Assembly: GCA_944329365.1 (NCBI GenBank)
Contig: CALVIC010000003.1
Location: 8,437 to 72,436, forward strand
Length of the DNA: 64,000 nt
Direction of reading: 5' to 3'
Source: an uncultured Bacilli bacterium
GTDB lineage: Bacteria; Bacillota_I; Bacilli_A; RF39; UBA660
How positions within the stretch are numbered: position 1 is the first letter of the stretch; each line of letters begins with the position of its first letter. Shown piece after piece: positions 132 through 20,317 of the stretch. The position numbers and the translations under genes are program-made. The notes beneath the pieces were generated by a model. That model had not been told where the DNA came from. It did not search any database and saw nothing but the letters and a program-made list of their open reading frames with translations.

Positions 132-257
132 AACATGTAAAAGAAAGAGACAAAAAGTTAAATAAAAAAATCAGTCATTATAGAGAGAATCGTCTAATAA
201 GTCTCAAAATAACTGATTTTATCATGTGTGTTAAGAGAAGAATATAATTGAATATAC

Positions 258-3200
258 TTAGCAAATGTTTTCTAATACTTTTTTTATAATTTCTAATGCA
301 TATTTTCTCTTCAACCTATGGTGAAAAGCTTGATTATTATAATTTCGTAGACAATTATAACAAGAAGTGTTTTCGTCACAACAATTCTGATTAACTTTGT
401 TTTTAGCACATTTAAATACTTCTATAAACATACTCTTATCCATGATTCTTTTTACATGGCCTGCTCCGCCAGGAACATTATCAAAAACAATTAAGTCATA
501 ATTATTATATTTATTCTTTACCACTAAACCATCTATGTCTTTCCTTTCAATAGAAAATTCTTGACTAATTCCTTCTAAAATGGCATATAAAGTGGATAAA
601 GCTTTATCTTTATCGTTTAGATTTTTAATTGATATTTTGGCAACATCTGTTTTAAATTTATGTCCTAATGAAATATGCCATAAATCTTCATCCGGACAAT
701 TAAATCCCTTGAAATCTACATGATTCATTTTTATTTTTTCACTTCCATATGCCGTTTTATCAATTTTTGTATATCCACACGTTTTACACATATAGAATGG
801 ATTTTTGTTGAGAATAAGCAATTCATCATCAGAGGATGTTTCAATTGTTATATAATTATTAGCACCAATCATTAATTTGTTTTCATCTTTTTTTCCGTTC
901 CCAATGTATGATGTCATTCCTGTATAAGTTTTTTTAGGTTTTTTCCTTGTACTTTCATTGGTTTTTCCTGTTTTAAATCCATATATTGGCTCAATAAAGA
1001 AGTTGTTAATAATTTCTTCGTTAGGTGCTTCACAATATTGACATTTCTTTAATTTTTCTGGAAATAAACTTATATTTTCTCTTTCGCAAAATGGACAAGT
1101 GTAATAATAATTTCTAGCAAATTCTTGTGTTTTTGGGAGAGAAATATATCTCGATGTATACTTTATTTTATCAACAATTATTTCTGATTCGGGTGCATAT
1201 TCTGAAATAGCTATACTTAAGTCTCTACTTAGATCATAATCATTATTTATTTTACCATTATCCCATATTTCTAAATTTACTAAATCTATTGGAAATCCAT
1301 ATTTTGGTATAACATTATATTTTGTTAAATTTTTTATTACACTATCTTTTTTTATTTCGTTTACTTGTGTTTGATAATAATCTGCATTTTTAAAATCATT
1401 TTCTTCTTTAGCTTTTTCTATTTCAAAATTATATTTATTTATTGTATCAATTATATTTGTGTAAAATCCTTCTAAATAATCTCCATTATTTTTTATTTCA
1501 TCTATCCATTTATAATCAGAATACTTATTATATGTATTTGAATCTAAAATTTTTGTATTAATAAACTCGTTCAGATCATCTGGATTTTGCTCAATATATT
1601 TTTTAAATTCCTTAATTCCGTCATGGCATACTAAACTATCAATATTTTTAAAATATTCTGGATACTTTCTAAAAAAATACCCAAATGCCGTTGCCATCAA
1701 GTGTCTTAAAATAATTTTTTCATTTGTATTATTAAATTTTGGAGGTTTTATTATTCCTGAAATCATTTTATTTGGATCATCGAAATATGTATAATCATGT
1801 GATGAATAACCACAATATGTTAGTATAAAAGCAGAACTATCTTTACTTCTTCCCGCTCTTCCCGCTCTTTGAACATAATTAGCAGGTGTAGGTGGAACAT
1901 TTCTCATAAAAACCGTTTCTAGTGAGCCTATATCAATGCCCATTTCAAATGTGGTTGAACAACTAAGAATATTTATTTTTTTATCTTTAAATTCTTTTTG
2001 ATATTCTTTTGCCGTTGCTTGTGATAATTGGGCGGTATGCTCTTTAATGTTGATTCTTTCTATTTTTTTAGTCTGATATTCTTTACGATAATAATTATTT
2101 TCAAATATTTTGTCAGGGTCACATTCTTTCAATATTCCATTACAATCCTTGTTTGTACAAACATTATGAACATTATATATTGTTAATTGACCACAATTTG
2201 AACATATATAGTATTGAGTATTTTTGTAGTTATCAAGTTTATATTTACTTGCAGATATTTGATAGACTTCATCACTTATTGAATTACCACTTTCACATAT
2301 ATTACCTTCTACTCCTATTTCATTAAAGATAATCTCTATAATATTACACGCTTCTTCGTGAGAACATTGAGCAACTTTCATTATATATTTTGTATACATA
2401 TTATCTCTGGATGAATAAACAGGTAATAAACTTCTTATATTATTATATTTAGTTTCAGTCTCATTTCTTTTGGATGATGGCTGCTTTTTTAACTTTATAT
2501 AATTATCAAATCTTCTATATGAAAGATATTCTTGTTTTTCAGAATTATTTAATCCAGAAATATTATATTCAATTGCGGGCGTAGTTCTAAAAATATTAAA
2601 TAATACATTAATAATGTTTTTTAAATCGGTTTTATTAATATTATATTTTCCAAATTCATTACTGATATCTTCTTCAGAAATTTCTTCAAAGAGATCATCT
2701 AAATCTAAGGTAAAGTGAAATAATCCTAATCCTTCAGCACTATAATTTCCGTCAATATTTAATAATTCATATAATGCCGTGATCCAAGCTTGTTTATTAC
2801 TTGATATTTTTTTGTTTGTGAACAAATTATATTTTCTAATTAAAGCATCTAATTGAGATAATAAATTATCAAATTTTATAGTTTGATAGTTATTATTTTT
2901 TATAATTTCCCATATTATTCTTTTTCTTAAAAATCTTTCATGGTTTCCTTCAAAAAAGCTTGCAAAAAAACTTGCTTGTTGTCTACTATCTGAAAAAGTA
3001 ATGAATTGTTTTACATATGGTTCTTTTGCCATTTTTAAAGTTTCGTTTCTCTTAAAAAGTACTGTTTTATAATCAGTTGTTTTTTCTGGTTCGTTGTTAT
3101 CAATGGCTTTGTATAATAATTGTGCTAGAATAGCTGTTGCTTCATCTTTTCCTATATTAATACTTCTTACTATTCCATTTTTTTGATGATGTAGACAATT

Positions 3201-4934
3201 AGGACATTCATTAATATTATTTTTCATGGAGTTAGATTTAACTTTGTAAACTGTTATTTTATATTTTTCGTCACATTTACATTTGTTATTATTTATTTTT
3301 TCAGAACTACATAGATAACCACACTTGCCACATAATTCATATTCTTCACAGTTGCTTTTATCAATATTTTCTGTTTCAGCACTATTTGGAATCATATAAT
3401 AATCTACTTCTTTTATTTTATTATCACCATAATTTTCATAAATATCAACATCATCATTTTTTCTTAAATAACCATCTATTTCTTTTCCAAAAAGGAACGA
3501 AGTATTACAATACCGACATGTACCAAGTTCAAATGTATTTAATTCATTTATCTTATTTGTAGGCGTCAAAGTTAAATATTTTTTCGGATCAATAGTAACA
3601 AATGCTCCAGATAAAGTTCTAATAAACGTATGATATTTTATATCATATAAATATTTATTATTCTTTTTTGCAACATTTATTAAATGAATTAATGAAACCA
3701 AATCTTGATCTTTATCAAAACCATTATCTTTTAGTTGTTTTATTATATCCTTAAATTGGCGATTTTTACTTGCTAGAAGATTATACAAATCATAAATGTT
3801 TTTATCTTTAATTAAAAGTTCATAGAGTATTCCCTCTATATCATTACTATTTGTTAATGTATATTTATGGGCAATGTTTTCTATTATATTTTTATTTTCT
3901 AAGTTTTCTTCTAATTCGCAATATATATCTGGATTTATTTGATATTCAATGTTTGAATCATCCAAATTTTTTCTAGTAGAAAAAATTATATCTGACTCCG
4001 AATAATTACTAGAAGTAAGTGATTTTGCAAATTCAATGATTGTTTGTTCATCTTTTCCCTTTTCACCTAATGTAGCACTAGTTAATATAAATTGCGGCTT
4101 TTTTTCAATTAGTCCAGTCAGTCTTTTTAGTAAATATGAAACTTCAATTCCTAAAGCCCCGCTATATGTATGTGCTTCATCTAATACAATAAATTTCCAA
4201 TGTCTCAAATATTCTTTATTAAAAATTTTAAAGTCGTTGGGTCTAATCAGGAGATATTCTAACATGGAATAATTTGTAAATAATAAGTGTGGAGGATTAT
4301 TTCTTATTTCTTCCCTACTTATTACCTCGTTTTGTGGTATTTTTGTGCCAAATTTTTTGAATAATTCTTCACGCGTGTTTTTATATTCTTCTTCTGTTTC
4401 TCCAGTAAAAAATCCAAATCTTATTTCAGTATAATTCATTAATATATTTCTTAGTCTATCCATTTGATCATTTACTAACGCATTCATTGGATATAATAGA
4501 ATAGCTCTTATTCCTGGCCCGTTATCTCCTTTTTCTATATCACGTAGTATTGAATTTAATATTGGATATAAAAAACTTTCTGTTTTACCTGATCCAGTGC
4601 CAGTTGTAATGACAACATTTCTACCATTTGTAATTTTTCTTAATGCTTGTTCCTGATGATAATATAATTTTTGATTAAAATCAATGTTATTAAGTTTTTT
4701 AAATAAAGGACTAACAGTTCCTTCCTCAATCAAATCATTAATTGATTTGGATGAAACAAATGGCAAGCTGATATTTAAAAAAGGACCTTTGTATAATACT
4801 TGTTTATCTAACTCCCTTTCAAACTCTGTTTTATATTCGTTATCTTTAAACGAAAATGTATCTTTTAAATATTCGCGAAATTCACTTTCAATGAATTTGG
4901 CTTCTTCTATAGGATTTAACTTTTTTTCTTTCAT
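258..4934 (-). CDS. Giant SF2 DExH helicase with a C-terminal DUF1998/MrfA-type zinc-binding domain (DruE-like)
   Basis: 1558 aa. Helicase motifs: motif I VVITTGTGSGKTESF, motif II FIVLDEAHTYSG, motif III LTSATLG, motif VI YVQRAGRAGRS near aa 1022. The C-terminus NVPGGAGHV...CCDENTSCYNCLRNYNNQAFHHRLKRKYA fits the DUF1998 signature. Several CxxC zinc-ribbon pairs are present. The ATG lies 3 nt after the stop of the upstream ORF. Confidence 0.6.
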   Translation of the reverse strand: MKEKKLNPIEEAKFIESEFREYLKDTFSFKDNEYKTEFERELDKQVLYKGPFLNISLPFVSSKSINDLIEEGTVSPLFKKLNNIDFNQKLYYHQEQALRKITNGRNVVITTGTGSGKTESFLYPILNSILRDIEKGDNGPGIRAILLYPMNALVNDQMDRLRNILMNYTEIRFGFFTGETEEEYKNTREELFKKFGTKIPQNEVISREEIRNNPPHLLFTNYSMLEYLLIRPNDFKIFNKEYLRHWKFIVLDEAHTYSGALGIEVSYLLKRLTGLIEKKPQFILTSATLGEKGKDEQTIIEFAKSLTSSNYSESDIIFSTRKNLDDSNIEYQINPDIYCELEENLENKNIIENIAHKYTLTNSNDIEGILYELLIKDKNIYDLYNLLASKNRQFKDIIKQLKDNGFDKDQDLVSLIHLINVAKKNNKYLYDIKYHTFIRTLSGAFVTIDPKKYLTLTPTNKINELNTFELGTCRYCNTSFLFGKEIDGYLRKNDDVDIYENYGDNKIKEVDYYMIPNSAETENIDKSNCEEYELCGKCGYLCSSEKINNNKCKCDEKYKITVYKVKSNSMKNNINECPNCLHHQKNGIVRSINIGKDEATAILAQLLYKAIDNNEPEKTTDYKTVLFKRNETLKMAKEPYVKQFITFSDSRQQASFFASFFEGNHERFLRKRIIWEIIKNNNYQTIKFDNLLSQLDALIRKYNLFTNKKISSNKQAWITALYELLNIDGNYSAEGLGLFHFTLDLDDLFEEISEEDISNEFGKYNINKTDLKNIINVLFNIFRTTPAIEYNISGLNNSEKQEYLSYRRFDNYIKLKKQPSSKRNETETKYNNIRSLLPVYSSRDNMYTKYIMKVAQCSHEEACNIIEIIFNEIGVEGNICESGNSISDEVYQISASKYKLDNYKNTQYYICSNCGQLTIYNVHNVCTNKDCNGILKECDPDKIFENNYYRKEYQTKKIERINIKEHTAQLSQATAKEYQKEFKDKKINILSCSTTFEMGIDIGSLETVFMRNVPPTPANYVQRAGRAGRSKDSSAFILTYCGYSSHDYTYFDDPNKMISGIIKPPKFNNTNEKIILRHLMATAFGYFFRKYPEYFKNIDSLVCHDGIKEFKKYIEQNPDDLNEFINTKILDSNTYNKYSDYKWIDEIKNNGDYLEGFYTNIIDTINKYNFEIEKAKEENDFKNADYYQTQVNEIKKDSVIKNLTKYNVIPKYGFPIDLVNLEIWDNGKINNDYDLSRDLSIAISEYAPESEIIVDKIKYTSRYISLPKTQEFARNYYYTCPFCERENISLFPEKLKKCQYCEAPNEEIINNFFIEPIYGFKTGKTNESTRKKPKKTYTGMTSYIGNGKKDENKLMIGANNYITIETSSDDELLILNKNPFYMCKTCGYTKIDKTAYGSEKIKMNHVDFKGFNCPDEDLWHISLGHKFKTDVAKISIKNLNDKDKALSTLYAILEGISQEFSIERKDIDGLVVKNKYNNYDLIVFDNVPGGAGHVKRIMDKSMFIEVFKCAKNKVNQNCCDENTSCYNCLRNYNNQAFHHRLKRKYALEIIKKVLENIC

Positions 4935-4937
4935 TTG

Positions 4938-7900
4938 CTACCTTCTTTCTACAATTAATAAACAAGAAAATATATCTGTTGCTCTATTACTTTCGATTTT
5001 ATCTAAAACTGTTCTATTGTCGAAGTCAATAAATAATCCATCACCATCTTTTGTAATACTTGCTTCTATAAGTCCATCGTTAATATCACTTGTAAAGTCA
5101 ATTTCTATCGGGTTTAAATTATTAAACATATGTTTTTGACCTTTTTTAAAAGTATAAATGTTTCCGATAAAATAAGTGTCACTTATTCTTTTTGTTATTT
5201 CAATATATGTATCATAAAGTTTATAGGTTTTGCGGGTAAAATTATTACCAATCATTTGATCAAAATCAACTGTATATATTTTAAAATACCTTCCAACAAA
5301 GTCGTCTAATGATATGTAAGAAAAATTTTCTTTATATAGAATTCTTTCTTTTCCTAATAATCCTGTTTTATCTTCTTTGATTAAAATTAAATATGTTTTA
5401 AATGAAGTTAAACCATTTACTATAAATTGTGTTTCACTACTTTCTATTTTTTTGTTAAAAATTATTTGTTTTTTTTCGTCTAATATCTCATAAGAGATAT
5501 TTCCTCGACCATAAATTGATACATTAGCTTTTAAATTCTTTGCTATTGGGTCATATTTTAAATTAGTTTTTTTTGCATTTACAAAACATTTGTTATAACA
5601 TTGTATAAGTCCTTTTACGTTATCTCCATCAAGAAATTTTAAATAAAAAATGTCTTCTTTATTATACGAAATTAACGTTCCTACATCCAATTCTTTACAA
5701 AATAAATTGTCTTTGGAATATAATGTTGTTAAAACTGTTCCATCTTTTTTTACTATATATACCTTATCATAAGCAATGCCATTTGTGACTATTTTACTTG
5801 AAAATTTAATATCTTTTGTCCAAATATATTCATTGCATCTTTTCCACATATTATTATCTATACGATATATTGGAATATTAATCGGAATTATAAATCCAAA
5901 CTCATATTTATCAAAATATATTTTATTTATGTCATTCGAATTTAAATTAATTATTTTTTCAAAAATATTTTTAGTAAAAGAAGTGCTTATTTTGACATAT
6001 AATTCATTATCAGAATATTCATCAACTAAGTAATTAAAGTCTTTGTCAACAACAACTTTAAAAACATTTGTTTTATACATTTGATTGTTTTTATGTTCCT
6101 CTATCGTAATCGTGTGAATGCCTTTTTTTAAATTGTTTATATTTATAACAAACTGCGTGCTTGCATTTTTATGTTTTTCAGTATAATTTAAATGTGTTAA
6201 TTTGTTTCTTACTCCATCTATATTTATAATGATATCATCACATGATAATTTTGTTTCATAGATTAAATATTTAATATACTTATAAATTTTCAACTTTTCT
6301 TTATTGTTGAAATAAAAAGCATTGGCTTCCACGCCGATTAAACCTGTTTTTTGTAGTGAAGAAAAACTAAATATATCATTACCAATTTTAACAGTATCTC
6401 CTTTTTTTACGTTTAAATATAAAATTTGATAATTTTTGTTTAGTAACTTATTTCTCCATGAATTTTCAATGTTAACACCATTAACGCAAAAAATAGCTAA
6501 GCCTTCATAGTCATTATTATTTTTGATTTCTCGTCCTTCTGAATTAAAAACAATATAATCTCTATATAATAAATTTTTACTATCATAAATGGTCTGATTT
6601 CCACATAATAACTTATATTCTAATTTTCCTAGAGGATTTTCAATCAATATATTCGAACATTCAATACGATATCCTCCTATAATATCGTATACATCCAAGT
6701 CTTCTTTTGAAATGATTTCATCACCATTTGAAATAACAAGTTTGAGTTTTGTATAATCATATGAGTTTTTTATTTTATGATTTGGTATTGATAAATAGAT
6801 ATTGGAACTATTTAGAAGAAATTTAGGCTCCCATCTTGATGATAATTCGATTTTTCGTTTGCTTTTCTCTTTAATCTCTTTGTTAACTTTTCTTTGCCAG
6901 ATTTCAAATCCGTAATTATAATATTTGTTATTTATAGAAGGAATTTGATTTTTCCAATAATATTCATCAATTATTTTCAAAACATTGCCACTTAATTTTA
7001 TTAAATCATTAATTCCTTTCTCATCAGTAATTAAATCTTTTGTTGTTTTAATTAATTTGTATGTTTTGTTTGTTACTTTTAAATCGATTTGATCATTTTC
7101 AAAATTATTCCCCTTAATTCCCTCATAAACAAATAATAATTCTTCTGATAAGTTTGTTTTTTCGGATATTGAATAATCAAAGTTTAGTTTATAAACATCA
7201 TATAAAAAATCAAAAAATGATGGCAAGTATTTTTGAGGTACTATGTCATTCTTTAATACAACCGAAATTATTCTTTCAGTTATTTCTTTTTGAGTATTAT
7301 ATATACTAATAATATTTCTAATTTGTCCTTCTATTTTTTGCTCTGAAAAATTATTATATATATATTTATAGATTTTTCTAACATGGTTGTAAAAATTTCC
7401 GTCATAATTAATTAATCCAATTATCGTCAAAGAAATAAATATAATGTCATAATCTATATCATATATTGAGCATTTGGTTTGCAATAATGACTGCAATTCT
7501 TCTTGTGCTTTATAGTGTATTTTATTGACTAATTTTGCATCATTAATTATATCTATTATGTCATTTCCTATTATTTCGTTATTTTTTAATTTGTACTTAA
7601 TTAGCCTTAGTTTTTTTAGATTACCATTTTCATATAATATTTCTTTAAAAGATAATATGATTTCTTTTTGTTCTTCTTTGCTCAAATAATTGTCTTTTAA
7701 GTATTTATCAATTATTTCATTAACTTTTGAAAAAAATGAATTTTCTAAATTTGATTGATTATTTTTTAACCATTTCTTTAATTTTATAATTTCTTGAAAA
7801 TTAATGATATCATCTGCTTCAATTCCTTGGATTATACCAATTAGTTCACTTTCATTATCTATTTTATTTTTAATATTATTATAATAGTTAGTAAACTTAA

Positions 7901-8111
7901 TTATTTTTTCTTTTTCTTGATTTGTTATTAAGTTATCTTTTAAAATTTGATTTAACAATTTTATAATTTTAATACAATAAATATTATTATCATTGTTGTT
8001 TTCTGTGATCCATTTTTTTAACATTTGAATTTCTTTTTCATTTATAATATTATCGTAATTTATTGAATTTAAGATTCCAAGTAATTCAGAAAATTTATTA
8101 TAATACTTCAT
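4938..8111 (-). CDS. Large protein of unknown function; DruH-like by size and position only
   Basis: 1057 aa. The N-terminus has two ~58-aa helical repeats (aa 17-73 and 97-155). The rest is Asn/Lys/Ile-rich and looks beta-rich. No catalytic motif recognised. GGGAG RBS about 10 nt upstream of the ATG. Stop TAG at 4938-4940 lies 3 nt before the helicase ATG. Confidence 0.4.
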   Translation of the reverse strand: MKYYNKFSELLGILNSINYDNIINEKEIQMLKKWITENNNDNNIYCIKIIKLLNQILKDNLITNQEKEKIIKFTNYYNNIKNKIDNESELIGIIQGIEADDIINFQEIIKLKKWLKNNQSNLENSFFSKVNEIIDKYLKDNYLSKEEQKEIILSFKEILYENGNLKKLRLIKYKLKNNEIIGNDIIDIINDAKLVNKIHYKAQEELQSLLQTKCSIYDIDYDIIFISLTIIGLINYDGNFYNHVRKIYKYIYNNFSEQKIEGQIRNIISIYNTQKEITERIISVVLKNDIVPQKYLPSFFDFLYDVYKLNFDYSISEKTNLSEELLFVYEGIKGNNFENDQIDLKVTNKTYKLIKTTKDLITDEKGINDLIKLSGNVLKIIDEYYWKNQIPSINNKYYNYGFEIWQRKVNKEIKEKSKRKIELSSRWEPKFLLNSSNIYLSIPNHKIKNSYDYTKLKLVISNGDEIISKEDLDVYDIIGGYRIECSNILIENPLGKLEYKLLCGNQTIYDSKNLLYRDYIVFNSEGREIKNNNDYEGLAIFCVNGVNIENSWRNKLLNKNYQILYLNVKKGDTVKIGNDIFSFSSLQKTGLIGVEANAFYFNNKEKLKIYKYIKYLIYETKLSCDDIIINIDGVRNKLTHLNYTEKHKNASTQFVININNLKKGIHTITIEEHKNNQMYKTNVFKVVVDKDFNYLVDEYSDNELYVKISTSFTKNIFEKIINLNSNDINKIYFDKYEFGFIIPINIPIYRIDNNMWKRCNEYIWTKDIKFSSKIVTNGIAYDKVYIVKKDGTVLTTLYSKDNLFCKELDVGTLISYNKEDIFYLKFLDGDNVKGLIQCYNKCFVNAKKTNLKYDPIAKNLKANVSIYGRGNISYEILDEKKQIIFNKKIESSETQFIVNGLTSFKTYLILIKEDKTGLLGKERILYKENFSYISLDDFVGRYFKIYTVDFDQMIGNNFTRKTYKLYDTYIEITKRISDTYFIGNIYTFKKGQKHMFNNLNPIEIDFTSDINDGLIEASITKDGDGLFIDFDNRTVLDKIESNRATDIFSCLLIVERR

Positions 8112-8237
8112 TTTATAATACTCCCATCACACAAACACTTCTCATAATACATTTATTATACAATGAATCGTTATTATTTTATATATTTTCAATAGAAATT
8201 ATTGCTTTTTTTCAACCAGTGTGTTATAAATAATTTT

Positions 8238-10730: not shown

Positions 10731-10864
10731 ACACAAACTCCATTACTTTCTTAGTATATCATAATAAAAATAAAACACCAATTTTGATATGATGTTTTGA
10801 ATATTATATTAATTAAAATTTATATGATAAAAAGATTATATTCTAATTAAAGAATTTTTTCTTT

Positions 10865-13800
10865 TTAAATTTCTGATAATTCTTTACTAATTTCTCTCAT
10901 TGAACCAATTTGCTTTGAAAACATTTTATCCCATGCATCTAAACATTTTACTATTATATCTTCTTGATTAGTTTCATACACAGCATCAAATAATTTTATT
11001 ATGAGATAATTTAAATCATTATATTTATAATAATGTGATGATGGATTGTTTATGTCATATTGTTCTATAGTGATATTTATAACGTTAAATATTAAATCAC
11101 TATATTTAATAACGTTGTTAAATTTCTTTGTTAAAATATGAATAAATTTCTCTATAAATTCCTGTGAATCTAATGTTTTAAGTAATTCTATAATAAACTC
11201 ACTATCTTCCGATAAGCTTAATCCATTTTCTCCAAACAATTTATATGGATTTATTCTAACATCTTTGTATGTCGCAAATATTTTTATGATTTGTTTTATT
11301 TTCTCTTTATATTTATCGTATTTTATGTAAACCAATAACATGTCTATAACTGATTCTTTTATGATTTTATCATTACTCTTATTTAATATATCATCTTCGA
11401 ATTTACTATAAAAAAGATAAAAATCAACGAGTAGATAAGAATAAATTCTTTTTATATATTCACTATTAATATTTATTCCATGTAAAATTATTTTTATTAT
11501 GTCTTCTTTATAAGTTACACTCTTTTTGTATATAAAATGAAGAATATTCCTACTTGAATTATATCCATAAATATAATCATTAGAATATAGAGAAATTATA
11601 TTTCTGCTTGCAAAATCAAAATCATATTTTAAAAGCCAGCTTAAAATCGTCATACTTGAATATTTGATAACTTCATCTTTTGACATAATCATATCTTCAG
11701 CTACTTCAATAAATTCACTTGCATATTTTAAACTGTTTGATAATATATTACCAATGGCTGAGGCAAGCTTATAAATAGACGAATTTATTACTTTCACTTC
11801 TAATACTTCAGCTTTATCTCTATAACCATTATCGTTATCAAGAATATAATTACTATCAATTTTATTTTCTTTTATATCACTATATATTTGCATTAACATT
11901 TTTATTGTTCCTTTGTTCCAATTGACTTCTTCTTTTTTAGCAATGATTTCACAAATAAATGGTGCATATTTGTAATTGTCATTATATTTAAAAGTATTAA
12001 ATAGTATTTCCAACTTATCAATAGAAATCTCATCCAATACATTAGATGAAGCTAATGTGCTATATAATGTAATAACATATTCCGTAATAATAACAGAAGA
12101 ATTTATTATAAACAAGTCAATAAATGCATTAGGATTTTGCTGTATATTTATTGATAATGACGACTGAAATTCATATAAACTTCTATCTATGAATACGCCT
12201 TTTTTGCTATCATATATAGATTCATGATTATTTATTATTTTTTTATTTGTTAATATTTTAAGCCAACTTTGCATACTAATTTCTTTGTCCGCAATTGGTG
12301 ATATAACACTGCCATATTCAAAATGTTTTAAATCAAAAATCGAAAATTTTATATTATAAAATTTTCTATTCAAGACTTGTTTTAGCTGTTGAGCTTTGCT
12401 ATTTAAATATTTATCAGGTATTACATTTAATATTTCATATTGAAAATCTCCCCAATAGCTTATATAATTAGCATTACTGAAATCTTTTTTCTTTAGTTCA
12501 ATACCTTTTTTACATCTTTCAATTATATCTTCTGGCTTATAATTTATAACATTAGTCATCATTTTGTCTAAGGTATCTTTGTCAATATGATTTATAAATT
12601 TTTTTATTATTTTTTTTAGTATACTTATTGACTGTTTTTCTTTGCTAGTATATTCAAAACAGTTATTATTAATATCATTAAATAAATAACTAATTACTTC
12701 ATTTGCAGCTTTTAATGGCATACATAAAAATCCATATAAAATCAACTCATTACAAATATAAAATCCTTTATTAAGATAACACTTAAATAACTTCCAAAAT
12801 TCTTTATAGTCTGTCTCCACTATATTTTTAGTTGCTTCTTTTAACAATGAAATTATAATTCTCTGGACTGTCACTTCATTCCAATCATTGTTATTCCAGT
12901 CGTATAAATTAAACTTTTCTTTTGTTTTTGGAATTAATGGTAATAATGTATTAATAATTGTTATATTTTCTTTAACATTATGTTTTCCTTCATAATCAAT
13001 AAGATGCTTTTCAGAATATATTATATTTTGCTTTTTTAATTGCAGATGTTTTCCTAAAAATTCAATATATTTAATAGCTCTATATTCATTACATTTTATT
13101 AGTTCATCCAAATCCAAATATGAATTTATTAATAAATCGCTATACTTTTCATATATTTTTAAGCGTAGTTTGAATAATTCGTCAGTATCATATACTACGT
13201 CAATAGGTAATACTTCATATAATTCTTTATCAATTTGGTTATCTATAAAAAGATATTTTTTTATGAAATTTGTTTCAATTTTGTCATAATTATGATTAAT
13301 ACTTTTTAATAAATCAATCACATATTTTTTCTTTAAATGGTCTTGAATCCATTTATCAAAAACTCCGTTCGTTATTAATAGTTCAATCATTTCTTGATGA
13401 TTCATAAAGACTGTGTTTATAAAAATTTCAAACAAAGCTTTTTTATTATAATTATCAAGTATATATTGTTTGATTTTACCAGATAAATTCGTAGAAAGTC
13501 CTAACACTTCAAATGCAACATACTTCATATATGTTCGAATATTTTTACTATTAATAATTGAGTTTATACAATTCAAAAATTTCTCATCATCAATTTCATA
13601 TATTCGTTCTAAAAACATCTGTAATTGATATCTCTTATTTGGTAATTGCTTATTATAATCACCTATAAGAGATTCTATTGGTTTTTCTTCAAAATACTCT
13701 TCTATCATTTTTTCTACTGAAAAATAATCTAATAAACTTTGATGAGAAAAGGATATCATATTATCACTGCGTATTAAAAATGATTGTGAAAGTAAAAATT

Positions 13801-15400
13801 CAATAGAATGAGTATAATTACTTAATAAAAACTCTGGTAATGATATTTTACCTAATTTATTCATTTTATTAACTATTTCATTTTTTAAATTCGATAAATT
13901 GCATTCAGAAATACCTTTTTTTTCTCCTTCTTTTATAAGCTGTTGCCACCAGCTTGATATTAAATCACAGGTTGTACGAATGCCAGTTATATCATTTTCT
14001 TTTTTTATTTTCATAAAGATAAATAAATTGCTCGGAATTTTCAATAATTTTTTTAATTTAGAATTATAATTTTTATATTCTGGTCCAACAATAGAATTTA
14101 CGCAATCATCATTTAAACTATTAATATTGATTTTGACCCAGTTTTTTCTATTCTTTTCTATCATTCCTATAAACGACGGGTCGTTTTCAACATCAAAAGT
14201 TCTGCATACTAATATAATAGAAATTTTAATTTTTCTATCAAAATTGATATTTCTAATTTCTTCAATAATATCATTGCAAATATCTATGGAACTTCGACTA
14301 TGTATAGTAGTCCATCTTAATGCATCTAATTGATCAAATATTAAAACACATTTTTTGTTATTTGAAAATTTATCTAAAATTGTTGAAAGATATGTAGAAA
14401 ATCCTAATTTTTTACTCCATTCTAAACTATTATATTCTGGCATATATTTATCTAATTTAATTGCTAAATATTGATAGTCATTGGTTTCTAAGAAATTAAT
14501 TAATCCATATATTATTCCACTTTTACCATATCCTGCTTTGCCTGATATCATGATTGATTTTTCGTTATTAATGTTTGCAATTATATTTTCTAATTCTGGT
14601 CTATTTATATAATTATTATTTATTAATTTTATGCTTTCTTTAAATTTTTCATTTAATCTTTTTATAATATTAAAATTTGAGTCATCATTAGCTAGAGTGT
14701 TTAAAAGCATTTTATTTGTTTTAAAAAAAGAATACAAAAATGATTTGTCAATCTCTTTACCCATTATATCTTCGTTACATACCAAATCCACAATTTTTCT
14801 ATAGTTATCTTTTGGGTTTCCATGAAATAGCATCTTAATTTGCATTAATATGAATTCTGTTATTGTATCATCAGGCATATTATTTACTTCTGTTCTTCGA
14901 AGATAATCCATTGCTTTTTTAACGTCTTCCATATTATTGTAATCAAGTTCAAGTTCATGACAATATTTTTTAAAATCAGAAAAAGTTGTTGTGCTTTTTT
15001 TTATCTGCTCATTATAAAATAATTTAACATCTCCATTGTTGTTTTTTGCTCTGCTTATTAAATCTGATAGACTTATAAAGGATATTGGAGATTCAAGAAC
15101 TACAACATTATCTTTAGACCTGTCTAAGTGAAATTTCCATTTTTTTAGTAAATCGTAGGATTTTAGTCCAGAAAAAGTCCAATTATTATTACTTCCATTA
15201 CGAAATTTACACTGAATATATTTTTTAGTACCATCAAAATTTGTAATGACTATATCAGTTGCTACTTCGTTATCACCTAAGCCTTCAAACATACAGCTAC
15301 TAACTTTTTCTTCAACAACATCTAATAATGACTTTATAATGCAATTTCTTTCATATCTATTTCCTAATTTATCTGCCCTTCCAGCTGGTTCACTAGCCAT
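10865..15400 (-). CDS. Nuclease-NTPase-repeat giant: N-terminal Cap4/DUF4297-like PD-(D/E)xK nuclease, central P-loop STAND-like NTPase, about 1000-aa alpha-helical repeat C-terminus (Avs-like)
   Basis: 1511 aa. N-terminus reads LGNRYERNCI...FEGLG...ATDIVITNFDGTKKYIQCKF. Walker A ISGKAGYGKSG (aa 286-294). Walker B-like CVLIFDQLDAL. The remainder is leucine/isoleucine-rich helical sequence. AGGAGG RBS upstream of the ATG. Confidence 0.55.
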   Translation of the reverse strand: MASEPAGRADKLGNRYERNCIIKSLLDVVEEKVSSCMFEGLGDNEVATDIVITNFDGTKKYIQCKFRNGSNNNWTFSGLKSYDLLKKWKFHLDRSKDNVVVLESPISFISLSDLISRAKNNNGDVKLFYNEQIKKSTTTFSDFKKYCHELELDYNNMEDVKKAMDYLRRTEVNNMPDDTITEFILMQIKMLFHGNPKDNYRKIVDLVCNEDIMGKEIDKSFLYSFFKTNKMLLNTLANDDSNFNIIKRLNEKFKESIKLINNNYINRPELENIIANINNEKSIMISGKAGYGKSGIIYGLINFLETNDYQYLAIKLDKYMPEYNSLEWSKKLGFSTYLSTILDKFSNNKKCVLIFDQLDALRWTTIHSRSSIDICNDIIEEIRNINFDRKIKISIILVCRTFDVENDPSFIGMIEKNRKNWVKININSLNDDCVNSIVGPEYKNYNSKLKKLLKIPSNLFIFMKIKKENDITGIRTTCDLISSWWQQLIKEGEKKGISECNLSNLKNEIVNKMNKLGKISLPEFLLSNYTHSIEFLLSQSFLIRSDNMISFSHQSLLDYFSVEKMIEEYFEEKPIESLIGDYNKQLPNKRYQLQMFLERIYEIDDEKFLNCINSIINSKNIRTYMKYVAFEVLGLSTNLSGKIKQYILDNYNKKALFEIFINTVFMNHQEMIELLITNGVFDKWIQDHLKKKYVIDLLKSINHNYDKIETNFIKKYLFIDNQIDKELYEVLPIDVVYDTDELFKLRLKIYEKYSDLLINSYLDLDELIKCNEYRAIKYIEFLGKHLQLKKQNIIYSEKHLIDYEGKHNVKENITIINTLLPLIPKTKEKFNLYDWNNNDWNEVTVQRIIISLLKEATKNIVETDYKEFWKLFKCYLNKGFYICNELILYGFLCMPLKAANEVISYLFNDINNNCFEYTSKEKQSISILKKIIKKFINHIDKDTLDKMMTNVINYKPEDIIERCKKGIELKKKDFSNANYISYWGDFQYEILNVIPDKYLNSKAQQLKQVLNRKFYNIKFSIFDLKHFEYGSVISPIADKEISMQSWLKILTNKKIINNHESIYDSKKGVFIDRSLYEFQSSLSINIQQNPNAFIDLFIINSSVIITEYVITLYSTLASSNVLDEISIDKLEILFNTFKYNDNYKYAPFICEIIAKKEEVNWNKGTIKMLMQIYSDIKENKIDSNYILDNDNGYRDKAEVLEVKVINSSIYKLASAIGNILSNSLKYASEFIEVAEDMIMSKDEVIKYSSMTILSWLLKYDFDFASRNIISLYSNDYIYGYNSSRNILHFIYKKSVTYKEDIIKIILHGININSEYIKRIYSYLLVDFYLFYSKFEDDILNKSNDKIIKESVIDMLLVYIKYDKYKEKIKQIIKIFATYKDVRINPYKLFGENGLSLSEDSEFIIELLKTLDSQEFIEKFIHILTKKFNNVIKYSDLIFNVINITIEQYDINNPSSHYYKYNDLNYLIIKLFDAVYETNQEDIIVKCLDAWDKMFSKQIGSMREISKELSEI

Positions 15401-15695
15401 ATTTTACCTCCTACAGCAAAAGATAGTATAGTATTATGTTATCTTGTGCGTCATAATAGTTAATAAGTTTATCTGATTTTTTTAAATAATCTTCACTATG
15501 CCATAATATTGTTTTATAAAAGATAAACTGAAATCATCTAATATTTCTCATTTTTTACAATATTTATTTTTATCTATAACTAAAAAACGCAGCACAAAAA
15601 CATAAAGCCTGTACTAGCGCTCTTTTATATATAATATAATATTTTAGAACTGATTGTCAGATAAACTAATGAATTTATCAAAAAAAATTATGATT

Positions 15696-17570
15696 TTATT
15701 GATTAATTTTACTTTTAAAATAATATTGTAATTTTTTGTTTGTACAGTACACATAACAACCTTTCATTCCTCTTGTCATAAGTGTTCTATATGTGTTTTT
15801 TATAATTTTATCTGCTATTTCATTTGCTACCTCTTGTCCTTGCTCTTTTGCAATTTTATGTATTCCTTTCAATGATTGATCAGTTTTAGCTCTTTTTGTA
15901 TAATCAGTAACAATATGACCATCTTCATACCTAATATCATCCCCAATTATTACTCCAACATAATCAAATTCTAATCCCTGACAAGTGTGAATACAACCAA
16001 CTTCATTTACTGATGTTGAATCAATTGCCCAGGTTTGAGAATTACCTAAATTCCAGCTCATTTCAAAATTATATTCTGGGATTACTATATCGTGAACATT
16101 AGAATTATTTTTACCATTGCTAATCCAATTCCAACAATATCCTGCAACCAATCTTGATTTATTATTTATTTTATTTTTTTCTTCTATTAATCTTCTTAAT
16201 TCATTTGGATTATCTATTACTTTAAAATCATAATCAAAATCCATACCATCGAAGTTTGCTGTTTTTCTTATTTCTAAAACGTTATCTAGCCAAGCAAGAT
16301 AACCATCTGACCCATTACATCTAAATTGACTTTCTAATTCAACTACTTTAATTCCGGCGTTTAATTCTTTAGCAAATTTTTTTATTTCATCTACTGACCC
16401 AATATCTTTTAATGTAACTTTTTGGTCTTCATCAATGAAAAATATTGAAAAATTTGAAGCATTAATAATTTCTTTAATTTGATTTTCTCCTAGATTTTGG
16501 AACATTCCTGATTTTGCATTTAATCTATGTGCTTCATCGACAATTAAGCAATCAACTTCATTGCTTTCGGCTTCTGTAAAATTTCCTGAACCTTGAAATA
16601 AATTGTTAATATATGACATTTTGAAAGAACCTTTTAATTTATCTCTAAATACTGCTCTTGGAGCAGCGTTCTTTGTTACATAAAAACATGTCATATTTCG
16701 GCTAGTAAGTTCTACTAATAAGTTAATTGCTAAAACTGATTTTCCAGTTCCCGGTCCTCCTTGTACTACCAATACATTTTTCTCATTTGCAGATAAAGTA
16801 TCGATTGCCATTCTAATAGCATCTTCATAAATGACCTTTTGCTCATCAATCATATTAAATTCTTTGTTGCCCTGTAACATTTTTGTAAGAGAGTCTTGAA
16901 GTCGTTTTGATGGTCTTATTTTTCCATTTTCAATTTTATATAGAGTTTCTCTATCGTCTCCTTCAAGAATATATTTTTTTATAAAATTTCTTAATTTTAT
17001 AAAATCATTTGCTCCAAACATAGGTGCTTCATTTATATATTCTTGATATTGACTACTACAAATCGGGTCATCTTTACTTAATACATAGTTATGTAAAAAG
17101 GCACAAGGATATAGGCCTATATCTTCTAATTGTACAGTTTCATTAAAATCTCTAATTAAATTTGCATAACTCATAGCTTGATAGGAAGGATGAGTCACTT
17201 CTCTTATGGCATGGCCAGTAAATGTTGAAACTATTCCGTCTTTACCTTCAACTGCTTCACATTTTTCCCACTGCTTTAATTCTATAATAATAACCGAATT
17301 TTTTTTATTTTTATCTCTTCCTGATAAAATAAAGTCTATTCTTTTAGATGTTGTTGGAATATTAAATTCGATTGCTACACCTGCATTATCTGGTATTTCT
17401 TTGTCATCTAAGACTCCTCTCATATATTGCATAGAATTCTTCCAAGAATTTAATTGGGGATCACTTGCTCTTCCAAAATACTTTTGATACTTTTCATATA
17501 TTTTATTTACAATTAAATTTAAATTTACATCATTAATGAATCCTGATTTTACTCCTTCATACACCAACAT
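15696..17570 (-). CDS. DUF2075 family protein (Schlafen-group-III-like ATPase/helicase with an N-terminal nuclease-like module)
   Basis: 624 aa. The N-terminus is typical of the family: SWKNSMQYM...IEFNIPTTSKRIDFILSG...VIIIELKQWE. Walker A VVQGGPGTGKSVLA, Walker B CLIVDEAHRL, then FFIDEDQKV. AAGGAG RBS. Start lies 28 nt after the MazG stop. Confidence 0.75.
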   Translation of the reverse strand: MLVYEGVKSGFINDVNLNLIVNKIYEKYQKYFGRASDPQLNSWKNSMQYMRGVLDDKEIPDNAGVAIEFNIPTTSKRIDFILSGRDKNKKNSVIIIELKQWEKCEAVEGKDGIVSTFTGHAIREVTHPSYQAMSYANLIRDFNETVQLEDIGLYPCAFLHNYVLSKDDPICSSQYQEYINEAPMFGANDFIKLRNFIKKYILEGDDRETLYKIENGKIRPSKRLQDSLTKMLQGNKEFNMIDEQKVIYEDAIRMAIDTLSANEKNVLVVQGGPGTGKSVLAINLLVELTSRNMTCFYVTKNAAPRAVFRDKLKGSFKMSYINNLFQGSGNFTEAESNEVDCLIVDEAHRLNAKSGMFQNLGENQIKEIINASNFSIFFIDEDQKVTLKDIGSVDEIKKFAKELNAGIKVVELESQFRCNGSDGYLAWLDNVLEIRKTANFDGMDFDYDFKVIDNPNELRRLIEEKNKINNKSRLVAGYCWNWISNGKNNSNVHDIVIPEYNFEMSWNLGNSQTWAIDSTSVNEVGCIHTCQGLEFDYVGVIIGDDIRYEDGHIVTDYTKRAKTDQSLKGIHKIAKEQGQEVANEIADKIIKNTYRTLMTRGMKGCYVYCTNKKLQYYFKSKINQ

Positions 17571-17598
17571 TTTTCATACTCCTTACTACATTAATAAT

Positions 17599-17916
17599 TT
17601 ATTGTAATTTTGTATATTTTGTACTTACTCCCTTAGCTTTATCTATGGGATATTTTTTAGCAGTAATTTTCATCTTATCTAAAATAATTTGTTCGGGGTC
17701 TGCTCCCAATTTATCTGCAAGCAATAATGAATAATTAAGTACATCAGCAAGTTCTGATTTTACCTCATCAATATTATAATTAGAGTTCCATTGAAAGCAT
17801 TCTAATAGTTCGCCTGCCTCTATAGAAATTGATTTTGCTAAATTCTCTGGACTATGAAATTGATCCCAGTCTCGTTCTTCAGTAAATTGTTTTATCTCTT
17901 TTATAAGATTTTTCAT
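17599..17916 (-). CDS. MazG-like nucleotide pyrophosphohydrolase
   Basis: 105 aa. ERDWDQFHSPENLAKSISIEAGELLECFQW with the ExxE metal motif is typical of small MazG-like pyrophosphohydrolases. Confidence 0.8.
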   Translation of the reverse strand: MKNLIKEIKQFTEERDWDQFHSPENLAKSISIEAGELLECFQWNSNYNIDEVKSELADVLNYSLLLADKLGADPEQIILDKMKITAKKYPIDKAKGVSTKYTKLQ

Positions 17917-18123
17917 TTTTACATCTCCTAAAATAACTTTTTCATAATTAAGTTTTATTTTCTTATTCTATATAGTAATGTTTTAAATCCTTTTTACTTC
18001 ATCAATCATTAGTTTTCCTAATTCGTTCTCTTTTTATGACTTTTTCACTCATATAATCACCACTGATATTTATGATTTATTATAGCATGTTAATTTATAA
18101 TTAGTAAATCAATATATCAATGA

Positions 18124-18684: not shown

Positions 18685-18685
18685 G

Positions 18686-19600
18686 TTAGATTCCTTTCAT
18701 ATAATTTTTTAGCTTTTCAAATATCGGAAGATTACCTTTATAACTTTTTGGAGAAATTGGACTAGGGTGATATATGGGCAATACTTTATATCCATTTACT
18801 TCATAAATGTTACCTACAACTTCAGAAAACTTTTTAAATTTAAAGCTTAATAGATTTCTAGTTGGAAACTCTCCTAAAGTAATTATTAATTTGGGGTTTA
18901 ATATTTCTAATTGTTTAAGCATTATGTTTTTACAGTTAGTAGAACATATTTTTAGGCTTTTTCTTTCTATTGGATAACATTTTACTGATTCTATAAAAGT
19001 AGTTTCAAATATATCTTTATTTATAATATCAAATAGTTTTTGTAATATAACTCCGCTAGGTAATATTTTACCATTTATATCTTTCCATAACATGTGACTT
19101 TTTCGCCATCCATTGTTTGCTGGAGCTTCTCCGATTAAAACAATATCATTATTTTTACCCAAAAATACAGTTGATGAGTTTGGAAACTTTTCAACTAAGG
19201 CTCCACATTTATGACACTTATATACTTCTTTATCTACTTCTTCTAATAACTTCTTTTTAACTTTATTTTTTAGTGTTTGATATCTATTATTTGTATCTTC
19301 CGTCAAAATTTTTTCTTTATCAATTATTTTGTAATCTTCGCAGTTTATTTCTTTAGCAAATTGTTCTTTTGTTAAATCAACTATTTGATTATTTATTAAA
19401 TTAAAGTAATGACTGATCCCATCAACTTTTGTTTTGGCTATTTCTCCACCAAAATAATCATTTACTACTAACGAAGTGATTGCACACATGCCTAAAGTTT
19501 TATTTGATTCATTCCATCGATTTTGTACTTTTATGTAACATAAATCTTTAGAATAACATTTTAATAAAGATTTCTTTAATTTTTCTATTGTCATAAACAT
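18686..19600 (-). CDS. Fusion of a YunG-like N-terminal domain with a uracil-DNA glycosylase superfamily (family 4/5-like) domain
   Basis: 304 aa. N-terminal LGMCAITSLVVNDYFGGEI...HYFNLINNQIVDLTKEQF resembles B. subtilis YunG. C-terminal half has VLIGEAPANNGWRKS, VKCYP and LPIYHPSPISP, which are UDG-superfamily motifs. Confidence 0.6.
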   Translation of the reverse strand: MFMTIEKLKKSLLKCYSKDLCYIKVQNRWNESNKTLGMCAITSLVVNDYFGGEIAKTKVDGISHYFNLINNQIVDLTKEQFAKEINCEDYKIIDKEKILTEDTNNRYQTLKNKVKKKLLEEVDKEVYKCHKCGALVEKFPNSSTVFLGKNNDIVLIGEAPANNGWRKSHMLWKDINGKILPSGVILQKLFDIINKDIFETTFIESVKCYPIERKSLKICSTNCKNIMLKQLEILNPKLIITLGEFPTRNLLSFKFKKFSEVVGNIYEVNGYKVLPIYHPSPISPKSYKGNLPIFEKLKNYMKGI

Positions 19601-19731
19601 ACACCCGTTACAAATATTATAACAGATTTAATTTTGATTGTCTTTTTTATTAGAAAATTCTATATGTTTATCCTTTTGTTTTAGATTAAAGAAGTGTTAT
19701 AATAGAATTAAATGAAGGTGAGGTTTTTATT

Positions 19732-20178
19732 ATGATAGATAGAGTTTTAATGGAATTATACGATGAATATGAAAAAGGTAATATGGAAAGTATTATAGAA
19801 TTTACTAATAAAACATTCCCTAATGATGGTACTGGTAAGCTTTTTATAGGCTGCCTTTTAATACTTTTCTCTAATGATGTCGGAGCTTATAAACCGAGAT
19901 ATTTTGCAACAAGAGAACGTTTATATTCAATTGTTTTGGCCGCCAAAGAAAAGATTGGAAACACTAATTTACTCGCGTTTTATATCGATAGAATAAATAG
20001 AAGTAAAGGAATAAGTAAGTACTTAGCTGATATTGTCAAAGATAAAAATATAGACAAATATGCAGATTTAATTATAGAATACTTAGATCAGTTTAAACCA
20101 AACTTCGTTTCAAATATTAAAAAGAATTATTCTGATAAGATTGAAGAATATATTAAAAATAATGAACAAAAAAACTAG
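19732..20178 (+). CDS. Hypothetical protein
   Basis: 148-aa ORF with GGTGAGG RBS, followed by a terminator. No recognisable motif. Confidence 0.45.
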   Translation: MIDRVLMELYDEYEKGNMESIIEFTNKTFPNDGTGKLFIGCLLILFSNDVGAYKPRYFATRERLYSIVLAAKEKIGNTNLLAFYIDRINRSKGISKYLADIVKDKNIDKYADLIIEYLDQFKPNFVSNIKKNYSDKIEEYIKNNEQKN

Positions 20179-20208
20179 GATTTTCAAATGAATTTCCTAG
20201 TCTTTTTT
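20174..20208 (+). terminator. Rho-independent terminator
   Basis: Stem ACTAGGA (20174-20180) pairs with TCCTAGT (20195-20201). A T-run follows at 20203-20208. The structure overlaps the TAG stop. Confidence 0.55.
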
Positions 20209-20240
20209 ATTATAAAACCATATGGTTTATCTTTCAAAAA

Positions 20241-20317
20241 TGGGGCGGAATATCGGATTCGAACCGATGCATAATGGAACCACAATCCACCGTGTTAACC
20301 CCTTCACCAATTCCGCC
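20241..20317 (-). tRNA. tRNA-His (anticodon GUG)
   Basis: Reverse complement is GGCGGAATTGGTGAAGGGGTTAACACGGTGGATTGTGGTTCCATTATGCATCGGTTCGAATCCGATATTCCGCCCCA. Acceptor stem GCGGAAT/ATTCCGC. An extra G-1 pairs with C73, the His hallmark. Anticodon loop TTGTGGT, T-loop TTCGAAT, encoded CCA. Confidence 0.95.

Follow-up and report, generated by a model that had tools for sequence, protein, structure and literature searches.

Defence systems related to the locus

Druantia III (Doron 2018; Bell et al. 2025, PMC12458937; Himpich et al. 2026, bioRxiv 10.64898/2026.05.13.724758) is the closest described counterpart of the first of four gene modules that lie beside a tRNA-His gene in the DNA analysed here, a stretch of 64,000 nt from an uncultured Bacilli bacterium (contig CALVIC010000003.1, positions 8,437 to 72,436). 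This whole stretch is referred to as the window, and positions count from its first letter. In subtype III-A, DruE is about 2,100 aa long and has two C-terminal PLD domains, and the III-like/III-B branch is "most frequently" without a nuclease (PMC12458937); subtype III-B is described in the literature as a compact DruE lacking PLDs together with one partner. The DruH protein of E. coli consists of an N-terminal globular domain, immunoglobulin (Ig)-like subdomains and a C-terminal domain, which binds single-stranded DNA (ssDNA) and is inhibited by ATP, and DruH has been proposed to be an infection sensor with weak nickase activity. The other modules can be compared with Mokosh type II, in which a Upf1-like helicase is combined with a PLD nuclease (Millman et al. 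2022), with SeAvs7, and with the Nhi and Nhi-like defence proteins, which are organised as an N-terminal nuclease followed by DUF2075 (10.1101/776245; 10.1101/2022.05.11.491447). The structure 9N00 represents apo SeAvs7, a Cap4 nuclease-STAND-TPR receptor that binds the phage major capsid protein (with EF-Tu), tetramerises and cleaves DNA (bioRxiv 10.64898/2026.01.04.697583).

We consider it very likely that the window contains part of a multi-system anti-phage defence island, situated in a hotspot of variable cargo between tRNA-His and a conserved PfkB/SIS-like gene of Candidatus Coprosoma-like gut Bacilli. Four independent defence modules are predicted in the region 258-17570, with mechanisms proposed by analogy to their characterised relatives. 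The preliminary description, made from the letters of this DNA alone, had already likened the block to a defence island, and that reading holds up when gene synteny among relatives, base composition and matches to defence families are compared: the match to DruE is strong (603 bits), and those of the Upf1-like helicase, the DUF2075 helicase and the STAND protein are clear at the domain level.

Variable cargo at a conserved tRNA-His junction

The gene adjoining the tRNA on its other side encodes an SNF2/SNF2_assoc helicase, and a search with it as query retrieved 80 loci, which belong to Candidatus Coprosoma and to related uncultured gut Bacilli; complete chromosomes among them measure 1.34-1.54 Mb. 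Labels such as L001 denote these related loci or other contigs. About 25 loci retain the SNF2/tRNA-His junction, with SNF2 identities as low as 54%, and the content past the tRNA differs almost from locus to locus. L002, with 97% SNF2 identity, carries NUDIX, Fic and DUF5655 genes and a DpnII cassette with two methylases, and L001 (90%) has a 92-aa open reading frame (ORF), a large serine recombinase, Fic and BrxA-BrxB-BrxC. A type III restriction-modification (R-M) system occupies the site in L010, a PLD-helicase and an Eco57I-type methylase in L016, and JetABCD follows SNF2 directly in L021. In L004 there is a PD-T4-1/REase-like gene and, at the contig end, a 75%-identical copy of the window's Upf1-like helicase. 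Such variable cargo at a conserved junction is the signature of a defence hotspot, and the preliminary description's concern that the same genes might stand in conserved synteny in all relatives is thereby answered.

These comparisons also bear on whether the genes might be vertically inherited housekeeping functions (DNA repair, replication or RNA quality control) that merely happen to be clustered. Genuine repair enzymes do exist in the YprA/MrfA, Upf1-like and uracil-DNA glycosylase (UDG) families, and three tRNA-proximal genes (YunG-UDG, kinase and MazG-like) recur at this site in distant relatives at 70-84% identity. Against this, the five large genes (DruE, its partner, the Upf1-like helicase, the STAND protein and the DUF2075 helicase) are absent within 10 kb of the junction in all 80 loci, the two closest relatives (L002 and L001) included, save for the partial helicase copy in L004; this largely refutes a housekeeping role for 258-17570. 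Over the same distance L002 and L001 lack all nine genes of the block. The DruE, Avs and Nhi-type assignments point to defence, relatives carry R-M, BREX or Wadjet systems at the same site, and the composition of the block deviates from that of the remaining window. We therefore regard a housekeeping cluster as very improbable.

The preliminary description had reported a lower GC content in the block. The direction of the difference is real, but the absolute values given were too high: in 2-kb windows GC is 0.22-0.28 over 1-20 kb and about 0.28-0.36 in the rest of the window. Mean gene GC is 0.258 for the nine block ORFs vs 0.319 for the 41 other ORFs of at least 150 aa (Mann-Whitney p=1.5e-4), and mean GC at third codon positions is 0.166 vs 0.236 for the same two sets (p=3.4e-4). 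To the right of the tRNA, genes for the SNF2/SNF2_assoc helicase, CotJB, Mn-catalase, TypA/BipA and FtsH are ordinary and syntenic in relatives, in agreement with the core genes that the preliminary description placed there. The SNF2 gene itself (20372-23551) scores 416 bits with the PADLOC model for DpdE and 374 bits with that for ZorD, which is likely to be a false positive in automated defence annotation. We rejected these scores as evidence of defence, the similarity being generic to SNF2 proteins and the gene part of the syntenic core in all relatives.

Organisation of the block

The features of the block are collected in Table 1. The ORF map reproduces the nine ORFs that had been placed between the left edge and tRNA-His, eight of them on the minus strand, and intervals of 3, 126, 128, 295, 28, 207 and 1 nt between the minus-strand ORFs follow from their coordinates. 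The encoded CCA end of the tRNA (20241-20243) faces the block, again as described. P-loops are visible in the proteins of 1558, 832, 1511, 624 and 186 aa; the accompanying statement that each is fused to, or lies beside, a predicted nuclease or nucleotide-modifying domain fails for DruE, which lacks a nuclease domain and whose 1057-aa neighbour has no nuclease signature. The view that the block is free of housekeeping genes is doubtful for the MazG-like, kinase and UDG genes. The gaps make a division into four or more transcription units plausible; a promoter and terminator scan gave no enrichment over shuffled sequences. Promoter-like sites numbered 173, vs 174 expected from shuffles of this AT-rich DNA, and although such sites fall in four intergenic gaps, the scan as a whole equals the shuffles and is uninformative on operon structure. 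Apart from tRNA-His no Rfam RNA family was found in the window, nor any tandem or CRISPR array, and a repeat search of the window returned only chance pairs of low-complexity, AT-rich sequence.

Table 1. Features between the left edge of the window and the tRNA-His gene.
Feature	Position	Strand	Evidence or remarks
Spacer beyond druE	1-257		Holds the tail of a 46-aa plus-strand ORF (1-130)
DruE-type YprA/MrfA-family superfamily 2 (SF2) helicase, 1558 aa	258-4934	minus	PADLOC, Pfam, PDB relatives
DruE partner, 1057 aa	4938-8111	minus	3 nt upstream of druE, co-directional
Upf1-like superfamily 1B (SF1B) helicase with C-terminal DUF2726 nuclease domain (PD-(D/E)xK/Vsr-like)	8238-10736	minus	Single-gene module
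Avs-type antiviral STAND protein, 1511 aa	10865-15400	minus	Cap4-like nuclease, STAND NTPase, ~950-aa alpha-solenoid sensor
Nhi-like protein, 624 aa	15696-17570	minus	DUF2075/Schlafen-group-3 helicase with N-terminal 230-aa region
MazG-like nucleotide pyrophosphohydrolase, 105 aa	17599-17916	minus	Pfam MazG-like 72 bits; PHROG pyrophosphatase
Fic gene remnant	17928-18046		In the 207-nt kinase/MazG gap; blastn
Small P-loop kinase with adenylate-kinase-like N-terminus, 186 aa	18124-18684	minus	Weak ADK, AAA_18, AAA_33
YunG + family-4 uracil-DNA glycosylase fusion, 304 aa	18686-19600	minus	Pfam YunG 113, UDG 47 bits; NCBIfam type-4 UDG
Orphan ORF, 148 aa	19732-20178	plus	Strain-specific; between tRNA-His and YunG-UDG
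Right-hand breakpoint	20169-20240		72 bp downstream of the tRNA still common with L002; homology ends at ~20169
tRNA-His(GTG)	20241-20316	minus	ARAGORN; Rfam 59.6 bits; conserved hotspot anchor

The DruE helicase and its partner

DruE scores 603 bits with the PADLOC model DruE1 and 535 bits with DruE3. Its Pfam domains are DEAD (residues 93-291), Helicase_C (955-1030) and the zinc-binding MZB domain (DUF1998, 1450-1529); Pfam finds no PLD or Vsr domain, and the protein stops 29 residues past MZB, so that it represents a compact form. The GSGKT and DEAH motifs and many CxxC pairs can be read in the sequence. Among solved structures its relatives are two DruE-type helicases of about 2,000 aa, 9tu7 (E 1.5e-75) and 9wae, and YprA (6znp). 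The window copy is one Glu codon shorter than all public copies of the island (1558 vs 1559 aa), the missing codon lying in a GETEEEE run at about residues 181-184 (window 4380-4390).

The 1057-aa partner has no match in Pfam, NCBIfam or PADLOC. An exhaustive profile search recovered 2,495 cluster representatives of its family; homologues are uniformly about 900-1,070 aa long, and many members (about 900 aa) lack the first 160 residues or so. The family stands directly upstream of a PLD-less DruE of 1,558-1,681 aa in all five independent contexts examined, which include Clostridium butyricum CP013238, another Firmicute contig, a Wadjet/NERD-helicase neighbourhood and an Oscillospiraceae metagenome-assembled genome near a serine recombinase. 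In the Wadjet neighbourhood (L098) the Wadjet genes precede the pair, and a NERD + UvrD/DUF2075-type helicase follows directly after it (14775-16472), which makes this a second, unrelated neighbourhood where DruE is found together with a DUF2075-type helicase and Wadjet.

The AlphaFold2 model of the partner (pLDDT 83) comprises a helical domain (residues 1-410) and an all-beta region of about 630 residues of beta-sandwiches (430-1057). Foldseek searches of PDB and BFVD, in a library that holds no DruH structure, returned only generic tandem arrays of Ig and fibronectin type III folds, and the family profile gave no match to PDB sequences. Residues 1-160 (window 7630-8111) form two tandem helical repeats of about 75 aa each, which score 74 bits with PHROG 3989, a family of phage proteins whose function is unknown. 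The partner resembles DruH in its position, its size and its predicted architecture; by sequence it is not detectably DruH.

The Upf1-like helicase

The second module is a single protein with Pfam domains AAA_11, AAA_12 and DUF2726. It is probably 830 rather than 832 aa long, with its start at 10730, because gene callers use an ATG two codons downstream of the listed TTG. Its C-terminal 133 aa match DUF2726 at 56 bits (DUF559 and MTES_1575 weakly). PADLOC models MkoC (160 bits) and MkoA (155 bits) match the helicase part only, and the closest solved relatives are IGHMBP2, Upf1 and DNA2.

The STAND protein

Homologues of the 1511-aa STAND protein number more than 400, have a near-constant length of about 1,505-1,545 aa and occur in Firmicutes and Fusobacterium; a Pfam nSTAND3 match is present in 17 of 27 sampled. 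The family profile matches one PDB chain, 9n00 (1523 aa), with E 5.6e-13 over residues 49-570. Residues D49, Q63, K65, G292-K293, D356, D359, R400 and H553 are invariant in the 27 homologues, and these include the Walker motifs GKS and DxxD of the NTPase, which aligns to that of SeAvs7. At the N-terminus the SeAvs7 alignment starts at residue 49, inside the nuclease, and the Pfam PDDEXK_15 match is weak.

The C-terminal 992 residues (520-1511) are modelled as an all-helical alpha-solenoid (pLDDT 84). Foldseek retrieved CAND1, karyopherins and Avs4 (8dgf), which are generic matches apart from Avs4, and among the matches listed Avs4 had the best TM-score (0.27-0.29). SeAvs7 is not among the 50 matches listed, from a library copy that may lack it, and in sequence the C-terminal stretch scores 0.7 bits against SeAvs7; a place of the sensor in the bilobed, capsid-binding Avs7/Dsr1 cluster is thus no more than possible. 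We conclude with confidence that the protein is Avs-type, with SeAvs7 as its closest solved relative.

The DUF2075 protein

The fourth module matches the Pfam family SLFN-g3_helicase (PF09848) at 360 bits over residues 264-610, and gives partial matches to the PADLOC models PDC-S41, AbiO and Nhi at 55-62 bits. Residues 1-230 gave no Pfam or other profile match and no PDB relative. A PD-(D/E)xK-like motif, RIDFIL...IIIELKQW (D78...E97-x-K99), was recognised by eye in this N-terminal region. The MazG-like gene that lies upstream may be co-transcribed with the DUF2075 gene.

Proposed mode of action

By analogy with studies of E. coli Druantia III, SeAvs7, Nhi and Mokosh, the modules may act as follows. 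DruE would be loaded onto the 3' single-stranded DNA that phage replication intermediates expose and would unwind in the 3'-to-5' direction, with the Ig-array partner as its sensor or ssDNA-binding co-factor. The Upf1-like helicase with its DUF2726 nuclease would move along phage nucleic acid and cleave it, much like Mokosh II, and the DUF2075 protein would act as an Nhi-like nuclease-helicase. The solenoid sensor of the STAND protein would recognise some conserved protein of the phage (for SeAvs7 this is the capsid protein). Binding would trigger oligomerisation that depends on ATP, whereupon the Cap4-like nuclease would cleave DNA indiscriminately, leading to abortive infection.

A probable older layer next to the tRNA

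The three genes between 17599 and 19600 appear to form an older, semi-conserved layer concerned with nucleotide hygiene, which is not demonstrably defence and which, counted with the Fic remnant and the orphan ORF, takes up the 2.6 kb adjoining the tRNA; this reading is proposed because the same genes recur here in distant relatives. YunG-UDG copies with 77% aa identity adjoin tRNA-His in L004, L010 and L016, the SNF2 proteins of which are only 64-67% identical to that of the window, and in L004 and L016 a kinase copy (69-70% identity) follows. A MazG-like copy (84%) occupies the same site in L012, where an unrelated 660-aa gene comes next, indicating that the MazG-like gene belongs to the conserved layer.

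The usual order in the lineage is tRNA-His, YunG-UDG, kinase, NUDIX, Fic and MazG, followed by the variable cargo. The window has no NUDIX gene, and Fic is reduced to fragments. By blastn, 17953-18046 corresponds to a 5' fragment of the L002 Fic gene (80%), and 17672-17956 matches L012 from MazG to the 3' end of Fic (named by Pfam); the presence of both 5' and 3' fragments in the kinase/MazG gap points to an internal deletion. The plus-strand orphan ORF has no family in Pfam, NCBIfam or PHROGs and only noise in PADLOC (E>=0.002); it has no homologue in the 80 related loci and is present on near-identical contigs.

Continuation beyond the left edge

An identical 830-aa helicase is found on 14 public contigs from at least seven samples; these contigs match the window at 99.9% identity along as much as 19.5 kb. 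A number of metagenome contigs end precisely where the SNF2 3' end meets tRNA-His (position 1 of the independent assemblies L087, L088, L090 and L091), and GC differs between block and flank, as would be seen if foreign AT-rich DNA had been joined to a Coprosoma contig at the tRNA by an assembly or binning error. The probability of such a chimera is negligible, since independent contigs from other samples (L090-L092) run from the SNF2 3' end across the tRNA and through the entire block at 99.9% identity; the tRNA-proximal genes, moreover, adjoin the same tRNA in relatives. The breaks suggest instead co-existing strains with different cargo.

The accessory region continues past the left edge of the window. 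Beyond druE, L090-L093 carry the 46-aa ORF in reverse orientation, a helix-turn-helix + WYL regulator 127 bp beyond the edge (PADLOC WYL 97 bits) and a PfkB fusion. L095 extends further, with a SoFic-like Fic protein (125 bits), a GNAT protein, a 148-aa ORF and a type II Wadjet in the order jetA-jetD (PADLOC JetA2 445, JetB2 336, JetC2 1171 and JetD2 191 bits); the walk leftward reached JetD, which is cut by the end of the locus. GC on this side is 0.24-0.27 across the WYL and PfkB genes and about 0.33 in Wadjet.

In the more distant L102 the WYL, PfkB and 227-aa genes lie 6-10 kb downstream of SNF2, among genes for ProRS and topoisomerase, which marks all three as old residents of the neighbourhood. 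The "654-aa" PfkB gene (L091, 21194 onward; L095, 480-2443) corresponds to two L102 genes, PfkB of 426 aa and the overlapping 227-aa gene. JetA of the L095 Wadjet (4934-12443) is 90% identical in aa and 81% in nt to that of L009 (22455-23138), where SNF2 is only 65% identical; the similarity of JetA despite this distance suggests horizontal movement of Wadjet within the lineage.

Acquisition of the cargo

On the right, window 20169-20400 aligns with L002 13384-13152 at 97.9%, and on the left the similarity to L002 sets in again within the PfkB fusion, exactly where PfkB and the 227-aa part join, about 2.1 kb left of the window. Both breakpoints thus fall within conserved sequence or beside it, the right one 72 bp beyond the tRNA and the left one within the PfkB/SIS-like ORF, and the replaced segment measures about 22.3 kb here and 9.3 kb in L002. 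The preliminary description had reported neither an integrase nor a transposase nor a duplicated tRNA 3' fragment for the window, and the same was found here: from the tRNA to JetD, about 32 kb of window and left-hand contigs, there is no recombinase, transposase or tRNA-derived repeat, and a search allowing up to 3-4 mismatches detected no further tRNA 3' end, either in the window or on L090-L095. Exchange of the cargo by homologous recombination in the conserved flanks is most likely, because integrase and att sites are absent from these sequences and the breakpoints fall in the flanks. An intact element driven by an integrase is thus not what this strain carries.

Site-specific integration clearly occurs at tRNA-His in this lineage. 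A large serine recombinase (Resolvase + Recombinase + zinc ribbon) with a 92-96-aa ORF comes right after tRNA-His in L001 (13228-15377), L015 and L023. In L007 (13229-13582), L008 (4994-6656) and L011 (13220-13573) there is a native-like 5' half of tRNA-His and, some 270 bp beyond it, an entire though divergent tRNA-His; L008 also has a native-like 3' half 1.6 kb further downstream. It looks as if DNA had been inserted into the tRNA gene in these three loci, bringing a replacement copy.

The block could accordingly be viewed as cargo of an integrative element (a satellite, an integrative and conjugative element or a degraded prophage) that entered at tRNA-His, with its integrase and attR located further left or decayed. 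Besides the recombinases and split or duplicated tRNAs of the relatives, the adjacency to the tRNA, the orientation of its 3' end toward the block and the low GC fit this view, as does the report that YprA-helicase defence islands of E. coli are often cargo of mobile genetic elements at tRNA genes (PMC12458937). In this strain, however, the 32 kb described above carry no recombinase, transposase or tRNA fragment, the tRNA-proximal genes are common to distant relatives at core-like identity, and the far breakpoint against L002 lies inside a conserved gene rather than at an att-like repeat. PHROGs likewise identified no phage structural or integration families, and gave no support to a prophage remnant, a reading that we rejected. 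We regard an integrative element, perhaps decayed, as the less likely but still serious alternative, and prefer recombination in the flanks.

Evidence against the defence-island reading

Several results weigh against the interpretation of the region as a defence island with the modules and history proposed above. A strong full-length score with a defence model was obtained for DruE only, and the defence function of all modules is a prediction from sequence. The DruH models and profiles give no support to the Druantia assignment of the 1057-aa partner. Taking as reference the full-length E. coli DruH/YjiT (WP_001513100.1, 1096 aa), hhalign assigned the partner family profile a probability of 0.06%, and the 12 PADLOC DruH hidden Markov models, which match E. 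coli DruH at up to 1828 bits, matched none of 13 partner family members, among them the most divergent ones listed by the exhaustive HMMER search; that listing contained no member remote enough to form a bridge to DruH. Homology of the partner to DruH/YjiT is thus not supported by sequence, and a relationship too remote for these tools is possible.

For the Upf1-like helicase, under half of the MkoC profile is covered and the nuclease is a different one. The sensor of the STAND protein is tied to no named Avs family, and the putative Nhi-like N-terminal nuclease of the DUF2075 protein depends on the motif found by eye. The extension past the left edge is taken from near-identical contigs and not from the window, and one of these, L095, was assembled from noisy long reads and reaches only 98.5% identity where it overlaps. 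The recombination mechanism, finally, is deduced from the absence of integrase and att sites and the positions of the breakpoints, and from these only.

Significance

Hotspots of defence genes linked to tRNAs are well known, and the island adds an instance and not a concept. It represents a dense stack in a little-studied gut lineage with reduced genomes, with at least five recognisable systems and SoFic in about 32 kb, or roughly 2% of the genome, provided that the host, like its sequenced relatives, has one of 1.3-1.5 Mb. The interval from SNF2/tRNA-His to the PfkB/SIS-like gene is a clean comparative site, filled in relatives by R-M, BREX, Wadjet or helicase systems, and should be useful for mining new systems via guilt by association.

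The partner family is the only element of the island that is potentially new, being large, consistently found with a compact DruE, and predicted to be DruH-like in shape. Tentatively, its members may not be divergent DruH proteins but a class of DruE partners in their own right that is so far uncatalogued, which we rate as possible rather than probable. If so, large Ig-array proteins would have become partners of compact nuclease-less DruE on more than one occasion, and a family of some 2,500 representatives, mostly in Firmicutes, would be the unannotated half of a widespread defence system that is missed by DruH models. The family is invisible to the PADLOC DruH models, with the consequence that such Firmicutes systems would be called incomplete or missed.

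Comparison with known systems

The DruE pair has the layout of Druantia III-B, the likeness being drawn from the published description rather than from a III-B reference sequence: two co-directional genes, with a domainless partner of about 1,050 aa just upstream of a YprA-family DruE that carries MZB, is compact and lacks PLD nuclease domains. As in the solved E. coli DruH, the partner is predicted to have an N-terminal domain followed by an Ig-like array. It differs from Druantia III in that neither E. coli DruH/YjiT nor any of the 12 PADLOC models is related in sequence to the partner, that the partner's helical N-terminal domain is longer (about 410 aa) and opens with two extra repeats, and that the best model for the window DruE is DruE1, not DruE3. 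On these analogies the module very probably works like Druantia III-B.

With Mokosh type II the second module shares the arrangement of a Upf1-like (COG1112) helicase and a C-terminal nuclease in one polypeptide. The nuclease is DUF2726, of restriction-endonuclease-like fold, and not PLD, and the match to the MkoC profile is confined to its helicase half; as the PLD domain is lacking, the protein is an architectural analogue of Mokosh II and not a member.

The STAND protein resembles SeAvs7 (9N00/9N01/9YIX) in length (1511 vs 1523 aa), in the Cap4-type nuclease and STAND NTPase, which align at the profile level, in the conservation of equivalents of D/QxK, Walker A/B, R400 and H553, and in its long, all-helical C-terminal sensor. 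It differs in the sensor region, which has no significant alignment, and in that most of its homologues are classed by Pfam as nSTAND3. Like Nhi (Bari et al. 2022; Millman et al. 2022), the fourth module is a single protein with a nuclease-like N-terminus and a DUF2075 superfamily 1 (SF1) helicase, but it is only a partial, 55-bit match to the PADLOC Nhi model, its N-terminal nuclease has no profile support, and a MazG-like gene stands 28 nt upstream.

As a whole, the island can be set beside the tRNA-linked islands of E. coli, such as Zorya II-Druantia III-ARMADA II at tRNA-Phe/Leu (PMC12458937). No integrase or att repeats were found here, where the breakpoints lie in conserved flanks, and the host belongs to a Bacilli lineage with reduced genomes of about 1.3-1.5 Mb. 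What the present island and those of E. coli have in common is a head-to-tail stack of systems beside the 3' end of a tRNA gene, variable between strains and atypical in composition.

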